NCBI RefSeq assembly: GCF_036365525.1
Contig: NC_090416.1
Coordinates: forward strand, 13,630,323-13,694,322
Reading direction: 5' to 3'
DNA from: Heterodontus francisci
Taxonomy: Eukaryota
DNA: 64,000 nt
Below the pieces are notes generated by a model. It had not been told where the DNA came from. It did not search any database and worked only from the letters and a program-made list of their open reading frames with translations. How positions within the stretch are numbered: the first letter of the stretch is position 1; each line of letters starts with the position of its first letter. The position numbers and the translations under genes are program-made. Shown here in pieces: positions 34,911-57,539 of the stretch.

Positions 34911-36145
34911 ATGGAACCCAAGTTCAGCTGGTCTTTCCGGGGAAGCAAGGTGGCGTCTTCCGAATCCAAAGCATCGTCGAGGCCTTCCCTGACTAAATCA
35001 GCCAAGCCTTCCGAGGTTACTCCGCCCAAAGCCAAGGTGTTGGGCCCGAGCAAACAGGAGGCACCGGAAGAGCAGAAACCTCGGAGCTCGTCCTTGTTCT
35101 CCGGGAGATCCGGCGATTCGAGGGCCCCGAGCGGAGGGATCGCCCCGCGGAAACTCAGCCTCCACGAGCAGTGGAAGGGCGCGGGCTCTCAATACGCCGG
35201 CCTCGGCGGGCACCATCGCTCCTCGAGCATGGGCGCCACTCAGTTCTGGAAAGCCATGGAATCCGGGAAGCAGAAGGACGGGGAGAAGGGGAAGAAAGCG
35301 GACGAGCCCAACGCCGGGCAGCGGGGCGTGAGGTTCCGAGGATCGGGCGTCCTGGGCCTGACGGAAAGCATCAGGAAAAGATGCGAAAGCTTTGTGACGC
35401 CGAAGGCGCCCGCCCGGGACGTCGGCGCGCCCGCCAAGAGGGAGGAAGGGCGGGGAAGCAGGGTCGCCGAGACCAGCGGGGCGGGCAACCCGGAAAAGCA
35501 GAGGGCTCGCTCAAACTCGGCGGGACCGGTTCCCGAGAGGCCTTCGTTAGTCATGCAGACAATCCATTCGTTTGAGCAGGCCATGAGGCAGAGGCACACC
35601 AGGAGATGTTCCCGCCAGGAGCATCCGGCTAAAACGTCAGCTGACGGCTCCTCTGCCCCGCCCCCGGGGAAAGCCGAGGACGATGTGGCGACGGACCCGC
35701 AGAGGGCCAAACAGCCATCGCGTGCGTCAAACGACTCAGTCGCCGGCCTCCCCCGGGCGACATCTACATCACAGCCCGCATCCGAAGACCCAAGGGCGGG
35801 CTCGTCCGCTCCCGAGGGATTAACCGGCCGCCAGTCTGAAGACTCGAGTCAAAGTCTTCCATCAAACGCAAGTCCTGCTGCACGTCGCTCGTCTCCAGAG
35901 GTTGAAGCTGGGGCTTGTAATCTGGGACAGTCCTCCAGGGAGAATGATGCAATGGTCCTCGAGGTCCACAGTCAGTTAATGGTGGAAGTGCCCAGGGCCT
36001 CCAGCCCTTGCGGCGTTTGTTCTGAAGTTAACAGTCCTTTGGGCAAAGTTGTGCTCTCCCCGTCTGTCAAATCCGATGATGAGTGGTCACTGTCAGACGA
36101 GACCCACAGCGACATAAGCCAGCTGGACAAGAGTTACTCCATAAG
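34911..36145 (+). CDS. Pro-interleukin-16-like gene, large first coding exon (disordered S/P/R-rich N-terminus ending DKSYSI)
   Basis: 1.39-kb open frame, CpG-rich; strong acceptor at 34848-34849; ATG 34911 in ggcATGg context; donor GTAAGG at 36146 in phase with the next exon. The start could instead lie in an upstream exon. Confidence 0.8.
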
Positions 36146-36769
36146 GTAAGGCCACCCCACACCCAAAGCCAAAGCTCAAACTGCACTGAGCTGGCGATCG
36201 CTGACGGCCGACAGAATCCACGCTCATTTCTTTTGCGTCAATTAAGGTTTCCAGTTAACTCAGAGAATTAGGGTGCCCAACGTTTGATGTAACTGTAATG
36301 GCTCCCCTCCCCCTTCCTGCTCCCAGTCCCACCTTCCCGAACTGGCCCTCAACGCCAAAGCCAACTCCTTTCTATTTGCACCTCTCATTCCAAGGTGTCG
36401 AATGTCCTGGGCCTGGAGGTTAGGAACGCGCCATTAAGCTGACCAATGCCAGTAGCGAGGGAGTGCCGCATTGTCAGAGGTGCCGTCTTTCGGGTGAAAC
36501 ATTAAACTGAGGCCCCGTCTGCCCCTCTCAGGTGGATATAAAAGATCCCACGGCTGCTATTGGAAGAAGAGTGTGGGGGTGGGGGAGGGGGGGAGTTCAC
36601 CTCGGGGTCCTAGGGCCCAGTATTTATCCCTCAACCAACTTCACTAAAAAACAGATTCTGCAGTAGCCCCATTACCCCACATTCCCCACAGGAAGTGTGA
36701 CGAAAGCAGTGTTGTTCTTGGCTGCAATAGTCAAACTATCCTGCCTGGTACACAAATTAATGGCCAATT

Positions 36770-37574
36770 GAGTGTAGAGGGAGCTTTACTCTGTATCTAA
36801 CCCCCGTGCTGTACCTGTCCTGGGAGTGTTTGATGGGGGACAGTGTAGAGGGAGCTTTACTCTGTATCTAACTCCGTGCTGTCCCTGTCCTGGGAGTGTT
36901 TGATGGGGACAGTGTAGAGGGAGCTTTACTCTGTATCTAACCCCGTGTTGTACCTGTCCTGGGAGTGTTTGATGGGGACAGTGTAGAGGGAGCTTTACTC
37001 TGTATCTAACCCCCGTGCTGTACCTGTCCTGGGAGTGTTTGATGGGGGACAGCGTAGAGGGAGCTTTACTCTGTATCTAACCCCCGTGCTGTACCTGTCC
37101 TGGGAGTGTTTGATGGGGGACAGCGTAGAGGGAGCTTTACTCTGTATCTAACCCCCGTGCTGTACCTGTCCTGGGAGTGTTTGATGGGGGACAGTGTAGA
37201 GGGAGCTTTACTCTGTATCTAACTCCGTGCTGTCCCTGTCCTGGGAGTGTTTGATGGGGACAGTGTAGAGGGAGCTTTACTCTGTATCTAACCCCGTGTT
37301 GTACCTGTCCTGGGAGTGTTTGATGGGGACAGTGTAGAGGGAGCTTTACCCTGTATCTAACCCCCGTGCTGTACCTGTCCTGGGAGTGTTTGATGGGGGA
37401 CAGTGTAGAGGGAGCTTTACTCTGTATCTAACCCCCGTGCTGTACCTGTCCTGGGAGTGTTTGATGGGGGACAGTGTAGAGGGAGCTTTACTCTGTATCT
37501 AACCCCCGTGCTGTACCTGTCCTGGGAGTGTTTGATGGGGACAGTGTAGAGGGAGCTTTACTCTGTATCTAACC
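36770..37574 (+). repeat. Same ~70-bp minisatellite, ~11 copies
   Basis: Same unit and orientation as 9757-10266. Confidence 0.97.
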
Positions 37575-37690
37575 TGGCTAGTTCTTGCTTTTGAAGCACT
37601 AAGTATGTGGAAAGCAGATAAAGATGATGAACTGCTGAATCCTTTGTGAAAGTGGAACTGAACGTTTCTGAAAGCCCTGTCCCTGTGTAG

Positions 37691-37874
37691 CCTGGCAGAG
37701 CTCCAAGAGTGCGGTATGGAGTGCAGAGAGGAAGTGAGGAGAGGTGACCGGCTGAACCACTCCGCCTCCCTCAACTCCAACATGTCCTTCATGTCTGTCG
37801 TCTCGCTGATCCCAAATGATGAACTGGACAGACTGTTGGATGAGGTCAAATGTCTGGAAGAGGGAGCACTACAG
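37691..37874 (+). CDS. IL16-like exon (SLAELQEC...SVVSLIPNDELDRLLDEVKCLEEGALQ)
   Basis: AG/GT boundaries; aligns with human IL16 NLSELREY...[27 protein letters not shown]. Confidence 0.93.
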
Positions 37875-38179
37875 GTATGTCACACTCCCGCTCCCACCTT
37901 TGGAGAGAGAGAGATAGTCCCGTTTCCGATATAACACTTGTGAAACTCACACAGCATTGCTCAGAATTTCTTTGCCCGCTGAACAAATTGTCACAGTCGG
38001 GTGGGACGAGTCTGGATGGACCACAGAGTCGTCTCCTTGTTCGGACGTACCTAAATCGTGGCCTGGGTTTGATGGTAGATCCAGAGTGGGGAGAGGTGCT
38101 TGGGCCCTCGCAGCCCTACCCCCTATTCTATTCTAGAAAGTCAGCTGGTGAAGGATCAAACTGGAGCCAATCTTGACGC

Positions 38180-38336
38180 ACACGTATATTTATTTACAGA
38201 GTTTCACACTGCAAGCATTCATCTCCTAATCCAACAACCATAGTTTCATTCTGTGTCTATTTATAGGGGCTCGAGTGAATCCCCAGTTAATGCCCACCCC
38301 CTGCATACAATTAAATGCAATTAATATACAATTAAC
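38180..38336 (-). mobile_element. Possible solo LTR fragment
   Basis: Reverse strand starts TGTTA, then a TATA-like cctataaat and an AATAAA in LTR order. Confidence 0.4.
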
Positions 38337-38603
38337 ACACCCCCCAACCCCCCCTCACACATACTGGGATTAGTCCGCTGAACAAGCTCGCTCACAAGCT
38401 GTCAAATGCACATTGAAAGTGAGGATGAGAATTTTAAAATCGAGGTGTGTTAGGACACGGGGGTGGGGGTGGATGGGCAGCAGAGTTTAGGCAGAGCTGA
38501 AGTTTTTGGATCGGCGTTTTTTTCAGTGGTAAAAAATGAACGGGACGGCACTGAAACCGGGAACCCTTTCCCCCTGTCTTAACAATGGATCTGTTTGGTC
38601 CAG

Positions 38604-38705
38604 TGTGCGGAAGATATCCAGGTGGTGGTGCTACACAAGGAGGAGGGAACTGGGCTTGGTTTCACCATTGCAGGAGGAATGGATCACGAAAACAAAATGG
38701 TCACT
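38604..38705 (+). CDS. IL16-like exon, first PDZ N-half ([34 protein letters not shown])
   Basis: GLGF loop; human IL16 [30 protein letters not shown]; donor GTAAGT. Not called by the ORF track. Confidence 0.95.
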
Positions 38706-38719
38706 GTAAGTAACTGAAA

Positions 38720-39330
38720 AGGAAAGGAAGACTTGCATTTCTATAGCACCTTTCACCACCTCAGGACGCCCCCAAAGCGCTTTATAGCCAATTAAGTCCT
38801 TTTCCCACAGAGCGTACTGACTGCTGTAACGTCGGAAACGCGGCAGCCAATTTGCGCACAGAAAGATCCCACAAACAGCAATGTGAGGATGACCCAGACC
38901 GTCTGTTTTTCGCGATGTGGGTTGAGGGATAAATATTGACCCCCCCCATGACACCGGGGAGAACTCTTTCCCCTCCCCCGCCCCCCAGTACTGACCCTCA
39001 GACAGCGCGGCGCTCCCTCAGTACTGTCCCTCCGACAGCGCGGCACTCCCTCAGTACTGGCACTGGGACTGTCGGCCTGGATTTTGCCCTCGAGTCTCTG
39101 AAGTGGGATTTGAACCCACAATCTTCCGACAGAGGCGAGAGAGAGAGAATCACTGAGCCATGGCTGACACAAGGTCAATGGAGGATTATGGACTGGACCA
39201 GATCCTGACTCCTGTTCAAACCGAGCCATGGGATCCTTAACCTGCATCTCTCGGGGCAGTTAGAGCCTCAGTTTAATGTCTCTCCTGAAGAGCAGCATTC
39301 CAGCCCCCCCCCCACCACCCCCCAGCCCCG
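38720..39330 (-). mobile_element. Deu-domain SINE (SacSINE1/AmnSINE1-like); many other copies, e.g. ~470-660, 1900-2160, 8360-8740, 27770-28050, 54120-54425, 56645-57035, 59400-59700, 63215-63545
   Basis: Recurrent ctgtgcgcaaattggctgccgcgtttcc core and gcgctatataaatgcaag tail; family name from memory. Confidence 0.7.
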
Positions 39331-39397
39331 CACTGGAGTGGTAGCCGATCGCTCCCCTGCACCTCTCTCTGAACGACCGTTCTCCTTCGCTTTGCAG

Positions 39398-39656
39398 GCT
39401 CACAAGGTTTTCCCAAACGGCCTCGCCGCTCAAGAAGGGACCATCGAGCACGGAGACGAGATCTTGTCCATCAACGGGAACTCCCTCAAGGGCGTCACCC
39501 ACAGCGAGGCCTTGTCCTTCCTGCACAAGGCCAGGCCTCCGAAGCAGGCCATTGTCGTGGTCCGGAAGATGACTGAGGCAGAGAGGGCCACCTTGCGAAA
39601 GGCCAGCGTGTCCAATGACAAGCCACGTGGCAGTGTTGACCTCAGTGCTGTGCCTG
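39398..39656 (+). CDS. IL16-like exon, first PDZ C-half plus linker ([27 protein letters not shown]...)
   Basis: Matches IL16 [32 protein letters not shown]; donor GTACGT in phase 1. Confidence 0.95.
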
Positions 39657-39990
39657 GTACGTAAAGTGCCTCTTGTACCGAGAGGCGAAACATTCGGTTC
39701 CAGTATTCATATGTACGCCAGACCGGGTAAGGATGGCAGATTTCCTTCCATCCATTAGTGTATGGGATTTGAAGACGATTCAGTAGTTCACCATTCCTGA
39801 GACGAGCTTTTTAATTCCAGAATTATCTTAATTAACTGAATTTAAATTCCCGGGCGGGATTCGAACTCGTGTCTTGGGATAATTAGTCCGGGCCTCTGGA
39901 TTACTAATCTACTGTGCCTTCGCTGGGTCAGCACTTGGAGAATGGGTTCCCCAGGGCTGTGACTAATGGGCCTTCTCCCCTTCCACGCAG

Positions 39991-40116
39991 AGAGCTCGGG
40001 AGAATCAGTCACGGTGGAGCTAATGACGTCTGGAGCTGGGCTCGGCTTCAGTCTGGACGGGGGAAAGAGTTCAAGTCAAGGGGACAGACCGCTCACCATC
40101 AAAAAGGTTTTCCCAG
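39991..40116 (+). CDS. IL16-like exon, last PDZ N-half ([42 protein letters not shown])
   Basis: Matches IL16 [26 protein letters not shown]; acceptor cgcag, donor GTAGGA. Confidence 0.95.
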
Positions 40117-40742
40117 GTAGGAAGGCATCGTCCTTAATTGTTTAACGTTATCCCGTATGTTAGATACTGAGATATTCAAAGCTTTGAAGTCCGTGCACCC
40201 CAAGGTTTCCCGGTTGAGGTCTTGCACCCGTCTTGCCTCTGTACGGTTTGTTACTTTCATAAGTGAAATTACCCTTACCCACGGCTGATATCCTTTATCC
40301 CATAAGTCTGTCCATTCCTCCCTCTCTCCTCCCTCCACCTCTGCCCTCCTGTCCCTTCCTCCATCTATCCCTGGTTCAGTCCCTTGGTCTGTGCTATGTA
40401 TTGACAATAGAGTCACAACAGCACACTACTGTCCCCTTGGGATAAGATTGTGGGGGGGTGGAAACCAACCAGCATTCCCATTCCTGATGGCTATCCCGTG
40501 AACCCCTCGCTCCCTCCCCCGGCTTTGACGTCGGGATGGGATAGGATGGGGCAGGAGCTGAGGTTGAAGTGCCCGCCTGCCAACGCTCACGGCCAGGGAA
40601 GAATGAATGGTCGACTTGGACGAGGCACTCAAACGGGGGGTAACCCAGCAGGTCCAAGTCCTTGGGGATGGGGGGAATGGGTGGCGGGTGGGCTTCGAAG
40701 GGAGCGCAGTTCCTTAGCCTTGTCGTCTCTGCTTGATTCCAG

Positions 40743-40924
40743 GTGGGCCGGCTGACCGAAACGGTTTGATCCAGCCCGGGGACCGGCTGGTGAAGGTACG
40801 GGACCAGGATTATCAGGAGCTGACCTGTTACGAGGCCTGGAATCTGATCAAGTCGCTTCCCGCGGGCCCTGTGCGGGTTGTCATCCGGAAAAAAGCCGAA
40901 GGAACGAGCGGGCAGCAGTCGTAA
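40743..40924 (+). CDS. IL16-like terminal exon (GGPADRNGLIQPGD...YEAWNLIKSLPAGPVRVVIRKKAEGTSGQQS*)
   Basis: Matches IL16 VQPGDEIL...[22 protein letters not shown]; stop TAA. Confidence 0.95.
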
Positions 40925-41662
40925 GATTCAGGAGGTTTTTTTTTTCCTTGTGTTTTTGCCCGAAAGACACAATGGCTGTTTCCGATGCCCTTTCCTAACT
41001 TGACATCCAGCTCAACCCCCGGAACGTCAGGAGGCGGACCTGAGGTGCAACTCATTTAGCCTCAAAGGGAAGCAGAGGGACTGGGGCTCCAAGAGCCAAA
41101 ATGACTGAAAGCTCGCGAAGAGGTCCGAGAAAAAGAAATTCTTCAGAAGGCCAATGGATTGTTGACCTCCCAAGTTGAGGGCCTGAGTGCATTGGCCCCC
41201 ATTGTTGGGCAAGGGGACTAAGCATTACGGAGCCTAGTCGGGTCGATGGGAGTTGAGATACAGAACAGTCATGGCTTCATGGATGGCGGGACCAGCTCGA
41301 GGGGCTGAATGGCCTTCTCACGGTCGCTGCATGGAAGGACCATTAGGGTAGAGTGTTGTAATTGCGCTATAGTGTTAAACCAGCCATCGTGTGTATCGCG
41401 CCCACACGGATGCACCCACTATTAGCAGTGGGGATTTGACCTTTGGAAGGAAGTCCATCACAGTTGAATACCGGGCACATTACCAGGGCGCAAGGCTCAT
41501 GGTGGGATCTTGCAGTATTACTTGCAGGACTGCTGCGAAGTAACTAAGGCCGGGTGATTTGGTGACGCCATTGGGGATCGCTGACTAGTCTGCAGGGTTC
41601 CTGCTGAGCCCTACAGCTGATGTAATATTTATGTGTCGTTGACTTCATGTTTTTTTCTTTTT

Positions 41663-44266: not shown

Positions 44267-44328
44267 ATGAGTTTGTTCGGTTTGTTTCGCGGATTCTTCG
44301 GTTTCCCGGAGAGAGGCGGCGGGAGAGA
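44267..44328 (+). CDS. HAX1: HAX1 exon 1 (MSLFGLFRGFFGFPERGGGR)
   Basis: Matches human MSLFDLFRGFFGFPG; donor GTGAGA at 44329, phase 2. Confidence 0.93.
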
Positions 44329-44394
44329 GTGAGAGAGCGGGAAAAGACCGGGAAAATACCGCGGGAACCGGGAAAACCCGGGAGAAAAACCGAC

Positions 44395-47300
44395 TCCCCC
44401 CCCTCCTCCCTCCCTACCCCCTCCTCCCTCCTCCTCACTCCCTCACTCCCTCCCCCCTCACTCCCTCCCCCCTCACTCCCTCCCCCCTCCTCCCTCACTC
44501 CCTCCCCCCTCCTCCCTCACTCCTCCCCCCCTCACTCCCTCCCCCCTCCTCCCTCACTCCCTCCCCCCTCCTCCCTCACTCCCTCCCCCCTCCTCCCTCA
44601 CCTCCCTCCCCCCTCCTCCTCACTCCCTCCCCCTCCTCCCTCACTCCCTCCCCCCTCACTCCCTCACTCCCTCCCCCCTCCTCCCTCACTCCCTCCCCCC
44701 CTCCTCCCTCACTCCCTCCCCCCCTCCTCCCTCACTCCCTCCCCCCTCCTCCCTCACTCCCTCCCCCCTCCTCCTCACTCCCTCCCCCCTCCTCCCTCAC
44801 TCCCTCCCCCCTCCTCCTCACTCCCTCCCCCCTCCTCCCTCACTCCCTCCCCCCTCACTCCCTCCCCCCTCACTCCCTCCTCCCTCACTCCCTCCCCCCC
44901 TCCCTCCCTCACTCCCTCCCTCCCCCTCACTCCCCTCCCCCCTCCTCCCTCACTCCTCCTCCTCACTCCCTCCCCCCCTCCTCCCTCACTCCCTCCCCCC
45001 TCCCCCCTCACTCCCTCCCCCCTCCCCTCACTCCCTCCCCCCCTCCTCCCTCACCCTCCCCCCCTCCCCCCCCTCCTCCCTCACCCTCCCCCCTCCTCCC
45101 TCACCCTCCCCCTCCTCCCTCACTCCCTCCCCCCTCCTCCCTCACTCCCTCCCCCTCCTCCCTCACTCCCTCCCTCCCCCCCTCCTCCCTCACTCCCTCC
45201 TCCCTCCCCCTCACTCCCTCCCCCTCCTCCCCCTCACTCCCTCCCCCCCTCCCCCTCACTCCCTCCCCCCTCCTCCCTCACCCCTCCCCCTCACTCCCTC
45301 CCCCCTCCTCCCTCACCCTCCCCCCTCCTCCCTCACTCCCTCCCCCCTCCTCCCTCACTCCCTCCCCCCTCCTCCCTCACTCCCTCCCCCCTCCTCCCTC
45401 ACTCCCTCCCCCCTCCTCCCTCACTCCCTCCCCCTCCTCCCTCACTCCCTCCCCCCTCCTCCCTCACTCCCTCCCTCCCTCCCCCCTCCTCCCTCCCTCC
45501 CCCCTCCTCCCTCCCTCCCTCCCCCCTCCTCCCTCACTCCCTCCCCCTCCTCCTCACTCCCTCCCCCTCCTCCCTCACTCCCTCCCCCTCCTCCCTCACT
45601 CCCTCCCCCTCCTCCCTCACTCCCTCCCCCTCCTCCCTCACTCCCTCCCCCCTCCTCCCTCACTCCCTCCTCCCTCCCCCCTCCTCCCTCACTCCCTCAC
45701 TCCCTCCTCCTCACTCCCTCCTCCTCACTCCCTCCTCCCTCCTCCCTCTCACTCCCTCCCCCCCTCCTCCCTCACTCCCTCCCCCCTCCTCCCTCACTCC
45801 CTCCCCCCCTCACTCCCTCCCCCCCTCCTCCTCACTCCCTCCCCCCCTCCTCCCTCACTCCCTCCCCCCCTCCTCCCTCACTCCCTCCCCCCCTCCTCCC
45901 TCACTCCCTCCCCCCCTCCTCCCTCACTCCCTCCCCCCTCCTCCCTCACCTCCTCCCCCCACCTCCTCCCTCACTCCCTCCCCCCTCCTCCCTCACTCCC
46001 TCCCCCCCTCCTCCCTCACTCCCTCCCCCCTCCTCCCTCACTCCCTCCCCCCCTCCTCCCTCACTCCCTCCCCCCTCCTCCCTCACACCCTCCCCCCCTC
46101 CTCCCTCACTCCCTCCCCCCCTCCTCCCTCACTCCCTCCCCCCCTCCTCCCTCACTCCCTCCCCCCTCCTCCCTCACTCCCTCCCCCCTCCTCCCTCACT
46201 CCCTCCCCCTCCTCCTCACTCCCTCCCCCCCTCCTCCCTCCACTCCCTCCCCCCTCCTCCCTCACTCCCTCCCCCTCCCCCTCACTCCCTCCCCCCTCCC
46301 TCCCCTCACTCCCTCCCCCCCTCCCCCCTCACTCCCTCCCCCCTCCCCCCTCACTCCCTCCCCCCCTCCCCCCTCACTCCCTCCCCCCCTCCCCCCTCAC
46401 TCCCTCCCCCCTCCCCCTCACTCCCTCCCCCCTCACTCCCTCCTCCCCCTCCCCCTCACTCCCTCCCCCCCTCCCCCTCACTCCCTCCCCCCTCCTCCCT
46501 CACTCCCTCCCCCCTCCTCCCTCACTCCCTCCCCCTCCTCCCTCACTCCTCCCCCCTCCTCCCTCACTCCCTCCCCCTCCTCCCTCACTCCCTCCCCCCT
46601 CCTCCCTCACTCCCTCCCCCTCCTCCCTCACTCCCTCCCCCTCCTCCCTCACTCCCTCCCCCCCTCCTCCCTCACTCCCTCCCCCCCTCCTCCCTCACTC
46701 CCTCCCCCCCTCCTCCCTCACTCCTCCCCCCTCCTCCCTCACTCCCTCCCCCCTCCTCCCTCACTCCCTCCCCCCCTCCTCCCTCACTCCCTCCCCCCTC
46801 CTCCTCCCCCCTCCTCCCTCACTCCCTCCCCCCTCCTCCCTCACTCCCTCCCCCCCCCTCCCTCACTCCCCTCCTCCCTCACTCCCTCCCCCTCCTCCCT
46901 CACTCCCTCCCCCCCTCCTCCCTCACTCCCTCCCCCCTCCTCCCTCACTCCTCCCCCCTCCTCCCTCACTCCCTCCCCCCTCCTCCCTCACTCCCCTCCC
47001 CCCTCCTCCCTCACTCCCTCCCCCCCTCCTCCCTCACTCCCTCCCCCCCTCCTCCCTCACTCCCTCCCCCCTCCTCCCTCACTCCCTCCCCCCCTCCTCC
47101 TCACTCCCTCCCCCCCTCCTCCCTCACTCCCTCCCCCCCTCCTCCCTCACTCCCTCCCCCCCTCCTCCCTCACTCCCTCCCCCCTCCTCCCTCACTCCCT
47201 CCCCCCCTCCCTCACTCCCTCCCCCTCCTCCCTCACTCCCTCCCCCCTCCTCCCTCACTCCCTCCCCCCTCCTCCCTCACTCCCTCCCCCCTCCTCCCTC

Positions 47301-49518
47301 ACTCCCTCCCCCCTCCTCCCTCACTCCTCACCCCTCCTCCCTCACTCCCCTCCCCCCTCCTCCCTCACTCCCTCCCCCCCTCCTCCCTCACTCCCTCCCC
47401 CCTCCTCCCTCACTCCCTCCCCCCCTCCTCCCTCACTCCCTCCCCCCCTCCTCCCTCACTCCCTCCCCCCCTCCTCCCTCACTCCCTCCCCCCTCCTCCC
47501 TCACTCCCTCCCCCCCTCCTCCCTCACTCCCTCCCCCCCTCCTCCCTCACTCCCTCCCCCCTCCTCCCTCACTCCCTCCCCCCCTCCTCCCTCACTCCTC
47601 CCCCCTCCTCCCTCACTCCCTCCCCCCCTCCTCCCTCACTCCCTCCCCCCCCTCCTCCCTCACTCCCTCCCCCCCTCCTCCTCACTCCCTCCCCCCCTCC
47701 TCCCTCACTCCCTCCCCCCTCCTCCCTCACTCCTCCCCCCCTCCTCCCTCACTCCCTCCCCCCCTCCTCCCTCACTCCCTCCCCCCCTCCTCCTCACTCC
47801 CTCCCCCCCTCCTCCCTCACTCCCTCCCCCCTCCTCCCTCACTCCCTCCCCCCCTCCTCCCTCACTCCTCCCCCCTCCTCCCTCACTCCCTCCCCCCTCC
47901 TCCCTCACCCCTCCCCCTCCTCCCTCACTCCCTCCCCCCCCTCCTCCCTCACTCCCTCCCCCCCTCCTCCCTCACTCCCTCCCCCCCTCCTCCCTCACTC
48001 CCTCCCCCCCTCCTCCCTCACTCCCTCCCCCCCTCCTCCTCACTCCCTCCCCCCCTCCTCCCTCACTCCCTCCCCCCTCCTCCCTCACTCCCTCCCCCCC
48101 TCCTCCCTCACTCCCTCCCCCCCTCCTCCCTCACTCCCTCCCCCCTCCTCCCTCACTCCCTCCCCCCCTCCTCCCTCACTCCCTCCCCCCCTCCTCCCTC
48201 ACTCCCTCCCCCCTCCTCCCTCACTCCCTCCCCCCCTCCTCCCTCACTCCCTCCCCCCTCCTCCCTCACTCCCTCCCCCCTCCTCCCTCACTCCCTCCCC
48301 CCCTCCTCCCTCACTCCCTCCCCCCCTCCTCCCTCACTCCCTCCCCCCCTCCTCCCTCACTCCCTCCCCCCCTCCTCCCTCACTCCCTCCCCCCCTCCTC
48401 CCTCACTCTCCCTCCCCCCCTCCTCCCTCACTCCTCCCCCCCTCCTCCCTCACTCCCTCCCCCCCTCCTCCCTCACTCCCTCCCCCCCTCCTCCCTCACT
48501 CCCTCCCCCCCTCCTCCCTCACTCCCTCCCCCCCTCCTCCCTCACTCCCTCCCCCCCTCCTCCCTCACTCCCTCCCCCCCTCCTCCCTCACTCCTCCCCC
48601 CCCTCCTCCCTCACTCCCTCCCCCCCTCCTCCCTCACTCCCTCCCCCCCTCCTCCCTCACTCCCTCCCCCCCCTCCTCCCTCACTCCCTCCCCCCTCCTC
48701 CCTCACTCCCTCCCCCCCTCCTCCCTCACTCCCTCCCCCCCTCCTCCCTCACTCCCTCCCCCCTCCTCCCTCACTCCCTCCCCCCTCCTCCCTCACTCCC
48801 TCCCCCCCTCCTCCCTCACTCCCTCCCCCCCTCCTCCCTCACTCCCTCCCCCCTCCTCCCTCACTCCCTCCCCCCCCCTCCTCCCTCACTCCCTCCCCCC
48901 CTCCTCCCTCACTCCCTCCCCCCTCCTCCCTCACTCCCTCCCCCCCTCCTCCTCACTCCCTCCCCCCTCCTCCCTCACTCCTCCTCCCTCACTCCCTCCC
49001 CCCCCTCCTCCCTCACTCCCTCCCCCCCTCCTCCCTCCTCCCTCCCCCCCTCCTCCCTCACTCCCTCCCCCCCTCCTCCCTCACTCCCTCCCCCCCCTCC
49101 TCCCTCACTCCCTCCCCCCCTCCTCCCTCACTCCCTCCCCCCCTCCTCCCTCACTCCCTCCCCCCCTCCTCCCTCACTCCTCCCCCCCCTCCTCCCTCAC
49201 TCCCTCCCCCCCTCCTCCCTCACTCCCTCCCCCCCTCCTCCCTCACTCCCTCCCCCCCTCCTCCCTCACTCCCTCCCCCCTCCTCCCTCACTCCTCCCCC
49301 CCTCCTCCTCACTCCCTCCCCCCCTCCTCCCTCACTCCCTCCCCCCCTCCTCCCTCACTCCCTCCCCCCCTCCTCCCTCACTCCCTCCCCCCCTCCTCCC
49401 TCACTCCCTCCCCCCCTCCTCCCTCACTCCCTCCCCCCTCCTCCCTCACTCCCTCCCCCCCTCCTCCCTCACTCCCTCCCCCCCTCCTCCCTCACTCCCT
49501 CCCCCCCTCCTCCCCCCA
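44395..49518 (+). repeat. 5.1-kb CT-rich degenerate tandem array (unit ~ccctcactccctccccc(c)tcct) in HAX1 intron 1
   Basis: Almost entirely C/T with a periodic A; runs into the assembly gap. Confidence 0.98.
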
Positions 49519-49718
49519 NNNNNNNNNNNNNNNNNNNNNNNNNNNNNNNNNNNNNNNNNNNNNNNNNNNNNNNNNNNNNNNNNNNNNNNNNNNNNNNNNN
49601 NNNNNNNNNNNNNNNNNNNNNNNNNNNNNNNNNNNNNNNNNNNNNNNNNNNNNNNNNNNNNNNNNNNNNNNNNNNNNNNNNNNNNNNNNNNNNNNNNNNN
49701 NNNNNNNNNNNNNNNNNN
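49519..49718. other. Assembly gap (200 N)
   Basis: Run of exactly 200 N, a placeholder of unknown true size. Confidence 1.
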
Positions 49719-49874
49719 TCCCACTCCCTGATTCCAGTGCTGGGAAATTGTACGAGGGCAGAATGGTGATGCTCTTCACAGTTGAGTAGCTGGCTGCCAT
49801 TCAGCGAAATGTAATAGTAGTCCCCCGGAGGTTATAATAAGCTTGTTTTATTTCTTTTTCCTCTCCAAACACAG

Positions 49875-50122
49875 AGCTTCCCGGTATTGCACCTTACCCT
49901 TATGCCAGAGGCCAGGAGGAGGAGGGCAGCAACAGCAGGCGAGCCCCTCGCGATTGGATGTTGAAGCAGCCGGACAGGGACCAGCCCGGCTCGTTCGAAA
50001 GGGGTACAGGGGAGGACCGTGGCCCGGAGTCTGGCACCCGCCCGTGGGATAGACCCGCACGGGATGAGCCGAGTGGCGGGCCGCTGACTCCCTACCGAAG
50101 ACCCTGGAATCCATCCAGCACT
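49875..50122 (+). CDS. HAX1: HAX1 exon 3 (ELPGIAP...PRDWMLKQPD...)
   Basis: Matches human ELPGP...LRDSMLKYPD; acceptor acacag, donor GTAAGA. Confidence 0.9.
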
Positions 50123-51095: not shown

Positions 51096-51150
51096 TTCGA
51101 AGATTTTTGGAAGTCTTTGAGACAGGGAGACGCCGTGAAAGAGGACAAGG
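51096..51150 (+). CDS. HAX1: HAX1 exon 4 (FEDFWKSLRQGDAVKEDK)
   Basis: Matches human FDDVW...REDN; strong acceptor and GTGAGT donor. Confidence 0.9.
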
Positions 51151-51790: not shown

Positions 51791-51905
51791 ACCTGGACTC
51801 CAGGGTGAACTCAGAAGGCCTGGATGATATCCTGAAGCCCTCGGAGCCCAAGACACATTCCTCCTTCAAGACCGTCTCCATATCGAAAGTGCTTCTTCCG
51901 ATGGG
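51791..51905 (+). CDS. HAX1: HAX1 exon 5 (DLDSRVNSEGLDDIL...FKTVSISKVLLP-DG), apparent 1-nt deletion near the 3' end
   Basis: Matches human DLDSQVSQEGL...FKSISVTKITKPDG; the GTGCGT donor at 51906 is one base out of phase with exon 6. Confidence 0.88.
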
Positions 51906-52780: not shown

Positions 52781-52934
52781 ACTGTGGAGGAGCGACGGGT
52801 AACGCGAGATAGTGAGGGTAACGAGGAAACCAGAATAACACGGGCCCAAGGAGAGCAGTCATACACCACGGTGACTCGACGGGACCCGCAGGGGAAGGAG
52901 GAGCGGACTGAACAGATGGTCAACATGGATGACC
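52781..52934 (+). CDS. HAX1: HAX1 exon 6 (TVEERRVTRDSEGNEETRITR...MVNMDD)
   Basis: Matches human [21 protein letters not shown]; donor GTGAGT. Confidence 0.93.
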
Positions 52935-53434
52935 GTGAGTGTCCGGGAACCGGCGGGGGACATGTTTCTCGGGAGGTTTGAGACGGTGTGTCTGGAAATA
53001 ATTGGTGCAGCCGAAGGCGGCCAGAGTGGCAACTGGGTGGAGGGGCAGACAGTCGGCACACATTGACCCCGGGGTGAGGAGAGAAGTCTGCTGTGGTTCT
53101 CGTTTCTGATCGTTACTCGGTGACTCTCGCGAGGGTGCCTGTGCCAGCTCCTGTCTGTGTGCGAGTCTGGTGCGGACAGGATCACTGGGCTATCCATGAT
53201 CACCGCCTCACAGCGGGTAGGGATGGACTGTATAAATGCGTCCTTGTTAGTGCCGCCCGCGTGTCAAGAACAAATGGTTAAGCGCGCGAAAGGTGGGACA
53301 GTGCCCTCGAGCTCACCTTTGTCCGCCCTGTCGGCTGTGGCTCAGCATTCTCGCTTCTGCGGAGAATAGCCGAGCTTTGAATCCCCCCGCCAGTGATTGT
53401 TTTCCTTTCTCTCTCTCTCTCTGTGTCCTCGCAG

Positions 53435-53565
53435 GAGATCTGCAAAGGTTTGCCGAGCGATGGGAACGCCAGGAGGGCAGTGACGCTCTCGGTGAGCGGC
53501 AGGGTTTCCGTGACTCGTTGTCCTTCCTCAACAGGCTGCTGAAAGGGATTTTCTCGGGCCGCTGA
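53435..53565 (+). CDS. HAX1: HAX1 last exon (RDLQRFAERW...DSLSFLNRLLKGIFSGR*)
   Basis: Strong acceptor; amphipathic C-terminus like human DAFSILDLFLGRWFRSR; stop TGA. Confidence 0.9.
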
Positions 53566-54909: not shown

Positions 54910-55950
54910 CAAAGAGCAGTACAGCACAGGAACAGGCCATTCGGCCCTCCAAGCCTGCGCCGATCTTGATGCCTACCTAAACTAAAACCTTCTGCACTTC
55001 CGGGGTCCGTATCCCTCTATTCCCATCCTATTCATGTATTTGTCAAGGTGCCTCTTAATCGTCTCTATGGTACCTGCTTCCACCACCTCCCCTGGCAGCA
55101 AGTTCCAGGCACTCGCCACCCTCTGTGTAAAGAACTTGCCTCGCACATCCCCTCTAAACTTTGCCCCTCGCACCTTAAACCTATGTTCCCTAGTAACTGA
55201 CTCTTCCACCCTGGGAAAAAGCTTCTGACTATCCACTCTGTCCATGCCACTCATAACTTTGTAAACCTCTATCATGTCGCCCCTCCACCTCCGTCGTTCC
55301 AGTGAAAACAATCCGAGTTTATCCAACCTCTCCTCATAACTAATGCCCTCCAGACCAGGCAACACCCTGGTAAACCTCTTCAATACTGTCTCCAAAGCCT
55401 CCACGTCCTTCTGGTAGTGTGGCGACCAGAATAGCATGCAATATTCTAAGTGTGGTCTAACTAAAGTTCTGTACAGCTGCAGCATGATTTGCCAATTTTT
55501 ATACTCTATGCCCCGACCGATGAAGGCAAGCATGCTGTATGCCTTCTTGACTACCTTATCCACCTGCGTTGCCACTTTCAGTGACCTGTGGACCTGTACC
55601 CCCAGATCTCTCTGCCTGTCAATACTCCTAAGGGTTCTGCCATTTACTGTATACTTCCCAACTGCATTAGATCTTCCAAAATGCATTACCTCACATTTGT
55701 CCGGATTAAACTCCATCTGCCATTTCTCCGCCCAAGTCTCCAACCGATCTATATCCAGCTGTATCCTCTGACAATCCTCATCATTATCCGCAACTCCACC
55801 AACCTTTGTGCCGTCCGCAAACTTACTAATCCGACCAGCTACATTTTCCTCCAAATCATTTATATATACTACAAAGAGCAAAGGTCCCAGCACTGATCCC
55901 TGCGGAACACCACTAGTCACATCCCTCCATTCAGAAAAACACCCTTCCAC
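54910..55950 (-). mobile_element. Young 5'-truncated CR1 LINE with an uninterrupted 325-aa RT C-terminal ORF
   Basis: ORF 54982-55959: SGVPQGSVLGPLLF, FADGTK, RDLGV, LYRTLVRPHLEYC. Confidence 0.93.
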
Positions 55951-57539
55951 TGATATCATTACCTACGTAACACACCACCAACCCTCCCGATCCTGCCACA
56001 CTCCGTGGCGGTCGAGCAGCTTTCTCCACCTCCCACTCCCCGGTCTCCTTGCACCATCTCTCTCATTCGTCCCTGTCTTTGAACGATGAAAAATCCCCTA
56101 TGTTGACCGAAAGATCAATAACTCTAGCTCGGTACCATCTCTTTCCATCTCCTCTGTTTACAGACGGGACGTGAATCTTGAATCTCTGCCGTGCTGTTGC
56201 CATCTGACACCCTGTTGTCAGTTTACCTCAACCCCCTCTACCTCCCTCCCTCCTTTCAGACCCTCCTTAAAAACCCATCTCGTCCCCCCCCCCCCCCCCC
56301 CCCACCAATATCTCCGCTGGCCCGGCGTAGATTTCTGTCCGATTAGGCTTCGGTGGACTTCCTGCAGCAGTTTACCATGGTAGAAGATTCAATTATAAAT
56401 GCACATTGTTCTTAACTTCAGGCAGGAATATGCAAAGTGCTTTGGAATGCAAATTATTTCTCGGCCGGTCGCATTCCCAAGTTTTTGTACTGCCCTGTGT
56501 TCACTAACTTCAATCCAAGAGCAATACAGATCGAAAGGAGACCATTCGGCCCATCGTGTCTGTGCTGGGCTCTGTGAAAGAGCTATCCAATTAGTCCCAC
56601 TCTTTTCCCCCCACCCCCCATATCCCATTAAATCTCTCCCCTTCGAGTCACAAGGTTCTGGGTTCAAGTCCCAGTACCAGCGCTGAGGGAGTGCCGCACT
56701 GTCGGAGGTGGTATCTTTTGGATGAGACGTTAAACCGAGGCCCTGTTTGCCCTCTCGGGGCGGGGGGCGGGCGGGGGGGGGGGATGTAAAAGATCCCGCG
56801 GCAAGCTATTTTGAGCTCTTCCCCTGGAGTCCTGACCAATATTTATCCCTCAATCGACATTGCGTAAACAGATTATTCGGCTATTAGCACAGCTGGGATC
56901 TTGCTGTGCACAAACCGGCTGCTGCGCTTCCTACATTACAACCGTGTCCGCGCTTCAAAAAAAAAAAGTGCTTCATTGGCTGCAAAGAGCGCGTTGGGAA
57001 CGTCTGGAGGTCGTGAAAGGCGCTATATAAACGCAACTCTCTCCACGTCACGGAGACTCCCTCGTCCGTGGTACGGTTCTAATAAATCTCTTCTGCGTTC
57101 TCTCCAAGGCCTTGACGTTCTTGCGAAAGTGCGGTGCCAGATTTGGACTCAGTACTCCAGCCGGGGGCCTACGCCACCTCTGCCCTGAGGGGGAACAGTC
57201 CCGCGCTCTTTAGCCATTCCACGTCGATAACCTGCACTTGGCTTTGCCAGTGATGCGGGCGGTAGATTGGACGTAGACTCCTCAATGCCAGAGGGACCCG
57301 TGCACTTGCGATGAAAAGGAGACGCGGAGCCTAGAGAGTCCGAAGTGACCAACGTCGCGGAGAGGTATCAGAGTCATGGTGACGGAGTGAGATTTGGAGT
57401 GGGGGGAGGTTTTTTGGAGGTGCTCGAGATTGGGCTGACTTGGCATCGAGGGGGTGGGGGGGGGTCACTGGCCCATCACTGGCTCCCACTGTTGGAAAGC
57501 TAAGTGCAGCTTATCGACGTGGAATGACTAAATAGTTGC

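Follow-up and report, generated by a model that had tools for sequence, protein, structure and literature searches.

The window, the whole 64,000-nucleotide stretch of Heterodontus francisci DNA analyzed here (contig NC_090416.1), carries HAX1, the Kostmann neutropenia gene, on its forward strand. The peptide singled out by an initial annotation lies at the 3' end of this gene. The window protein finds its best sequence matches among HAX1 proteins and falls with shark HAX1 in the gene tree; exon 52781-52934 is 100% identical to the NCBI model (P0001) labelled HAX1 of this species. The RDxMLK motif, the DLDS motif and the terminal helix are all present. Upstream on the same strand (about 35000-40925) lie the C-terminal PDZ exons (PF00595, E 1.6e-8) of a gene that may resemble pro-IL-16/PDZD2; one of its introns contains a tandem repeat with a unit of ~60 bases, seen by eye at about 36780-37570. 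The reverse strand carries a reverse-transcriptase ORF fragment (54982-55962; RVT_1, E 1.3e-11), likely from a LINE.

HAX1 exon 1 (44267-44328, +) opens with ATG, reads MSLFGLFRGFFGFPERGGGR, ends at a putative donor and corresponds to the start of P0001. The interval that follows (44329-49874, +) contains a CT-rich repeat and a run of N (49519-49718). An acidic N-terminal box is found in other sharks, but its acidic/FG-rich exon is missing from this assembly, across the 5-kb repeat and the 200-base N gap: tblastn of P0008 and P0004 leaves about residues 20-85 unmatched in the interval, and P0001, which spans it via a short doubtful exon, is gapped there in alignment A1. Three exons taken from spliced contigs come next, all on the forward strand: 49875-50122, with the RDWMLK motif (49949-49966), whose M-L-K is invariant in 30 of 30 rows of A1; 51096-51150 (FEDFWK...KEDK), also read from the sequence; and 51791-51905, with the DLDS motif and, according to the model, predicted strand 1 (residues 155-163). 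The assembly is short of one C near 51897 (51897-51905), the extra base being present in DNA run X4 and in spliced contigs of runs X1 and X2. P0001 makes up for the missing base with an artefactual 'MGC' where relatives read P-D-G.

The exon at 52781-52934 (+) is homologous to a core exon of the myeloid leukemia factor (MLF) family. It has 154 nt, runs from phase 0 to phase 1 between an AG at 52779-80 and a GT at 52935-36, and codes for TVEERR...MVNMDD, spanning predicted strands 2-5. The one base left over from 52934 joins the exon at 53435 (AG at 53433-34), which reads R-DLQRFAERWERQ...IFSGR and then stops. Thus, the segment highlighted by the initial annotation has two parts, both on the forward strand: 52844-52934, which covers the N-M-D helix cap along with strands 4 and 5 as predicted; and 53435-53472, with a predicted helix that holds conserved F225 and W229 and where the Pfam match described below ends. 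The remainder (53473-53565, +) encodes a linker, a terminal amphipathic helix that short forms retain and that lies outside the MLF match, and the stop codon. Runs X1 and X2 are RNA-like by a tool's guess, none is on record as RNA, and they are taken solely as a source of spliced contigs. In these contigs a single record contains exons 49875-50122, 51096-51150, 51791-51905 and 52781-52934; a contig piece begins at the 53435 acceptor, and the 52934-53435 joint is not among the rows shown.

The stretch is very probably the second half of an MLF-type domain in an ordinary shark HAX1 gene. The segment adds strands 4-5 and a helix, which are predicted to complete a five-stranded sheet. Ray-finned fishes, a frog, lepidosaurs and therian mammals likely lost this part separately.

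The shark protein shares with vertebrate HAX1 orthologs the N-terminus, RDxMLK, DLDS, strands 1-3 and the terminal helix. Compared with human HAX1 it is about 36 residues longer after strand 3 (70 residues follow that strand in the shark, 34 in human P0228), the excess being predicted as two more strands and a helix. This bears out the claim that the segment lacks a human counterpart, and a profile of the segment scores 3 bits against human HAX1 and 72 bits against the shark protein. Among 105 long forms, residues G192, G206, E212, N216, F225 and W229 are 83-99% conserved, and position 217 is hydrophobic. These are the very letters (G..E, N.D......F...W) first noted as common to the HAX1 segment and MLF. 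The turn, cap and aromatic residues of the segment are conserved from insects to sharks.

AlphaFold, run with the 105-sequence alignment, predicts strands at residues 155-163, 169-178, 183-191, 194-202 and 208-215, and a helix at 219-235. This block has pLDDT 87-98, and the remainder of the protein is low. For shrew HAX1, run with an alignment of different depth (44 sequences), the model has three strands and no such helix. Judging from these models, long-form HAX1 probably folds stably. A homodimer prediction for residues 150-238 scored 0.01, which is evidence neither way. Searches of the PDB by sequence and by fold found no relative; the best Foldseek E was 0.21, and the best Z, 7.8, fell among generic meanders and barrels. 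This null result argues neither for a novel fold nor for a distinct one. Structure neighbors in the Atlas (TM 0.55-0.62) are an arthropod HAX1 cluster and clusters from Fornicata, Streptophyta and Parabasalia. These neighbors, on which the HAX1-MLF structural comparison rests, serve as leads, and agree with the pan-eukaryote range of Mlf (the accessible part of PMC11527388). The same source describes for MLF a predicted central sheet with helices; in HAX1 here the prediction is a sheet plus a helix.

PF10248 is the Pfam family at issue; its title, 'Mlf1IP', is misleading for the MLF family according to the available text of PMC2914655. It is the top Pfam match of all seven shark and ray HAX1 proteins (E 1.4e-7 to 0.058), each below the Pfam cut-off of 34.5. 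Window HAX1 scores 24.7 bits against this curated cut-off, and MLF loci score 91-189 bits. In P0001, residues 165-232 align to profile positions 106-174. The match follows the segment: in alignment A1 it occurs in 10 of 11 long or eroded rows versus 1 of 19 short rows, and in A4 in 1 of 44 short forms (E 0.21). All 35 long forms chosen from 150 representatives match, 21 of them at or above the cut-off; a hint of an EF-hand appeared in one of these 35, under its cut-off. The window segment by itself (44 residues) has PF10248 as its sole Pfam match (E 9.6e-4), as an isolated segment it matches in eight of eight proteins (the seven others having been picked for high full-length scores), and none of the window's four single exons matches PF10248. 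PipA, Caskin-Pro-rich and Ntox17 also gave weak Pfam matches, which were too marginal to accept.

Comparisons outside Pfam used an MLF sample from a motif scan of metagenome contigs, which gave 25 loci, 23 of them reading as MLF. Ten of the 23 were scanned with PF10248 and account for the 91-189 bits; one of the two non-MLF loci was also scanned, with no match. HHalign of the 105 long HAX1 forms against 11 MLFs gives 97.4% and E 1.2e-11 over 80 columns at 19% identity, so the profile-profile match to the MLF family that the initial annotation called for is significant. The 44 short forms reach 3.5% over 17 columns, and P0001 alone against the MLF alignment 3.4%. The profile match is reciprocal. 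The MLF profile scores at least 15 bits in 84 of 105 long forms, in none of 44 short forms and in none of 105 reversed proteins, and gives 10.4 bits on the window protein; the HAX1 profile scores 23-44 bits on the 23 MLFs, and at most 7 on reversed sequences. As judged from sequence, the HAX1-MLF signal is a family-level one, much of which comes from the extra segment. A word-based search with P0137, aimed at MLF, found three HAX1-like proteins only, and, of 401 representatives with E 0.001 or better, the 150 that were listed look HAX1-like by eye rather than MLF.

The two families have common glycine turns, an N-x-D cap, and a helix with F and W (the MLF side being MLF1, MLF2, Drosophila MLF and Giardia Mlf). 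They also differ. HAX1 covers only about positions 99-174 of the 174 in the profile, and carries motifs of its own, DLDS and RDxMLK; upstream, the MLF rows show another stretch that looks like a strand. The IGHHI motif, typical of animal MLF, is invariant in the MLF rows, partly by selection of those rows, and the aligned HAX1 position reads ITRAQ.

Exon boundaries provide a separate line of evidence. The shark exon starts after P-D-G in phase 0, and ends one base past N-M-D-D. In five MLF loci (L008, L011, L018, L024 and L025), a 160-nt exon lies between an AG before [IV]RET and a GT one base past N-x-D-[DE]. The 3' intron (GT, phase 1 after N-x-D-x) occurs in 16 of 23 MLF loci: five have both introns (the other with its AG in phase 0 before [IV]RET), and 11 the 3' intron only; the remaining seven read through. 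Several of these loci are near-identical, insect-like copies and therefore not independent, so the count amounts to a few independent intron cases, not 16. The helix with F...W opens the next exon in four of six MLF loci examined. The 154-nt shark exon can be aligned with the 160-nt MLF exons over the full length, with two gaps of one residue each. Among them is L025, a vertebrate MLF2-like locus. The L025 alignment scores 50, versus -4 +/- 9 for shuffles; with each of the five MLF sequences, 0 of 2000 shuffles scored as high. Pfam, HHalign, the reciprocal profiles, the model and the exon alignment together support the proposal of a shared ancestral domain rich in beta-hairpins, and that HAX1 and MLF are homologous is close to certain.

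The kinship itself is already known, contrary to the novelty that the initial annotation implied. Kokoszynska, Rychlewski and Wyrwicz described C-terminal homology of HAX1 and MLF in 2010, using PSI-BLAST and secondary-structure prediction (PMC2914655, available text), and PF10248 is already precomputed on three of the seven shark and ray HAX1 records. That account treats three strands and the terminal helix as common, and an additional strand and helix as an MLF feature. Here, by contrast, the MLF match stops at the segment helix (residue 232-233), and the terminal helix (242-259) lies beyond it. The available main text mentions no intron, exon, shark, bird or loss, although long insect forms may be included in its Figure 2. 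The 2010 link seems to have seen little use, since papers of 2020 and 2024 still describe HAX1 as being without homology or known domain (PMC7670567 and PMC12406527, in the parts available). The present analysis adds exon-level evidence, loss in multiple lineages, and a likely foldable ortholog. In searches of mostly non-subscription journals, no published report was found of the shared intron positions and phases, or of the repeated loss.

The long form is widespread: 121 of the 150 listed representatives (of 401) reach through the segment. In a set of 47 labelled proteins, the segment profile separates 22 that score at least 31 bits from 25 that score at most 9; 20 of the 22 were in the profile, and the two held out scored 58 and 53. 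The segment is intact in nine sharks and rays, lungfish, coelacanth, a caecilian, the turtle Emydura, pigeon and parrot, and, among invertebrates, in amphioxus, three molluscs, a brachiopod, an annelid and a cockroach. Softshell turtle, gharial and a woodpecker (a partial model) have an eroded version. It is missing from ten ray-finned fishes (bichir to bass), the frog Spea, tuatara, four squamates, two marsupials, three placentals and P0196. Helix remnants persist in sturgeon, bichir, gharial and softshell turtle. P0196, perhaps from a chimaera, lacks strands 4-5 but keeps the helix tryptophan as a remnant, and is placed beside sharks and rays in the gene tree (99/96).

On the accepted vertebrate tree, this pattern of presence and absence requires at least four separate losses, five with P0196, as counted from gene models in which frogs are one species and the named samples do not include monotremes, salamanders or lamprey. 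A tree built without the segment rejects a single clade of the 17 short forms (p-AU 4.3e-5) and has five state changes. We are highly confident that the segment was lost repeatedly in vertebrates. Mapping the loss, as had been proposed, also broadens the idea that mammalian HAX1 partly lost the domain. The idea holds for therians but is not wide enough, as the segment is also absent from ray-finned fishes, a frog and lepidosaurs, whereas pigeon, parrot, a turtle, a caecilian and sharks kept it.

Alternative gene models of one species (tuatara, teleosts) diverge in this region, and where they do the last intron seems to be kept. This suggests loss by shrinkage on both sides of that intron, not by exon skipping. 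Four models (P0178, P0143, P0113 and P0124) skip strands 4-5; two keep the helix, and three are named as birds. These models could illustrate an internal splice donor as a route to loss, or be annotation artefacts. P0178, P0143 and P0113, known from UniRef only, were excluded from the loss count because they may be isoforms or model artefacts. Separately, the Albula model P0058 fuses HAX1 to an aquaporin-family domain (PF00230), likely through a merge of neighboring genes.

Function is best described for the human protein. A preprint (bioRxiv 10.64898/2026.05.24.727526), in its accessible text, describes helix 125-130 as the element by which human HAX1 engages and activates CLPB; the shark RDWMLK motif corresponds to this helix. 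Removing one or two of the structured elements changes little, but disaggregase stimulation stops once all five are removed. The protein elutes as a dimer-like species that needs the structured elements. Intermembrane-space location and CLPB activation are shown for human HAX1 only. Other partially available sources add that human HAX1 is mostly disordered with some sheet, and is ordered by lipids (PMC12406527); that DNAJA3 co-purifies with it (PMC7670567); that the Drosophila MLF domain binds the C-terminal region of DnaJ-1/Hsp40 (PMC5549762); and that an MLF1-HAX1 interaction is cited in review (PMC9939472). Because human HAX1, a short form, co-purifies with DNAJA3, the segment is not needed for that association.

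These observations suggest a history. Duplication of an MLF gene before the bilaterian split would have given rise to HAX1, which may then have become a mitochondrial chaperone cofactor recruited to CLPB. The RDxMLK helix would engage CLPB, as the preprint describes for human HAX1. The MLF domain, by analogy with Drosophila MLF, is likely an accessory surface for clients or J-proteins, and the segment helix likely stabilizes the sheet by packing M217, L222, F225 and W229 against it. Since CLPB activation tolerates loss of single structured elements, the domain is likely under relaxed selection, and relaxed constraint would allow repeated truncation. The mostly disordered behavior of human HAX1 would be accounted for by its three-stranded remnant.

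Beta-meanders with G/D turns and strands rich in T, V, E and R can resemble one another without common descent. Indeed, generic meanders match many unrelated folds (Z 6-7.8), identity here is low, and a single window sequence scores weakly (the single-exon Pfam scans, and HHalign with P0001 alone). However, the profiles match reciprocally with reversed controls at background, the match takes in the N-x-D...F...W helix, and both exon ends coincide with MLF introns in position and phase. Two coincident exon boundaries are hard to reconcile with convergence, which is largely refuted by the shared introns and is very improbable. Granting homology, long and short HAX1 might still be two old paralogs with reciprocal loss, or the long forms a separate gene beside a single loss. 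The poorly supported deep nodes of the gene tree leave room for this, as does the upstream neighbor here, a PDZ gene. Yet long and short forms interleave by taxon: a clade of amniotes (100/99) holds both, and short P0196 falls with sharks and rays. The single short-form clade is rejected, and the helix remnants in sturgeon, bichir, gharial and softshell turtle also count against old paralogs, which are a very unlikely account of the pattern.

The role of the domain is a harder question. Homology and losses may be real, and the intact domain may no longer have an MLF-like chaperone role, serving instead self-association or membrane binding, or only stabilization of the protein. The dimer-like species of human HAX1, which needs the structured elements (bioRxiv 10.64898/2026.05.24.727526, accessible text), fits this account, as do the ordering by lipids (PMC12406527, part available) and the lack in HAX1 of IGHHI, whose invariance in the MLF rows is partly due to selection. 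Conservation of the turn, cap and aromatic residues between insects and sharks points the other way; it shows constraint, and does not tell the roles apart. We regard this account as less likely than not but deserving of attention. Retention of a J-protein or client role by the HAX1 MLF domain, argued by analogy, is quite possible, though short of an even chance. A broader reading is that HAX1 is a mitochondrial MLF paralog with a stably folded ancestral domain, which in vertebrates was independently truncated to three strands on at least four to five occasions and is eroding in three more lineages; human disorder would be a recent, repeatedly evolved state, and long forms may keep a J-protein or client activity coupled to CLPB. 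We advance it tentatively, at not quite even chances.

The shared introns and reciprocal profiles put the 2010 link on firm ground, and tie together two chaperone cofactors: MLF with Hsp40, and HAX1 with CLPB. Where human HAX1 is disordered, long-form orthologs offer a predicted folded domain to crystallize, and the PDB searches turned up no solved relative. Repeated loss provides a natural deletion series for the role of the domain. If the broader reading is true, the first solved HAX1/MLF fold would come from HAX1 of a shark, bird or insect.
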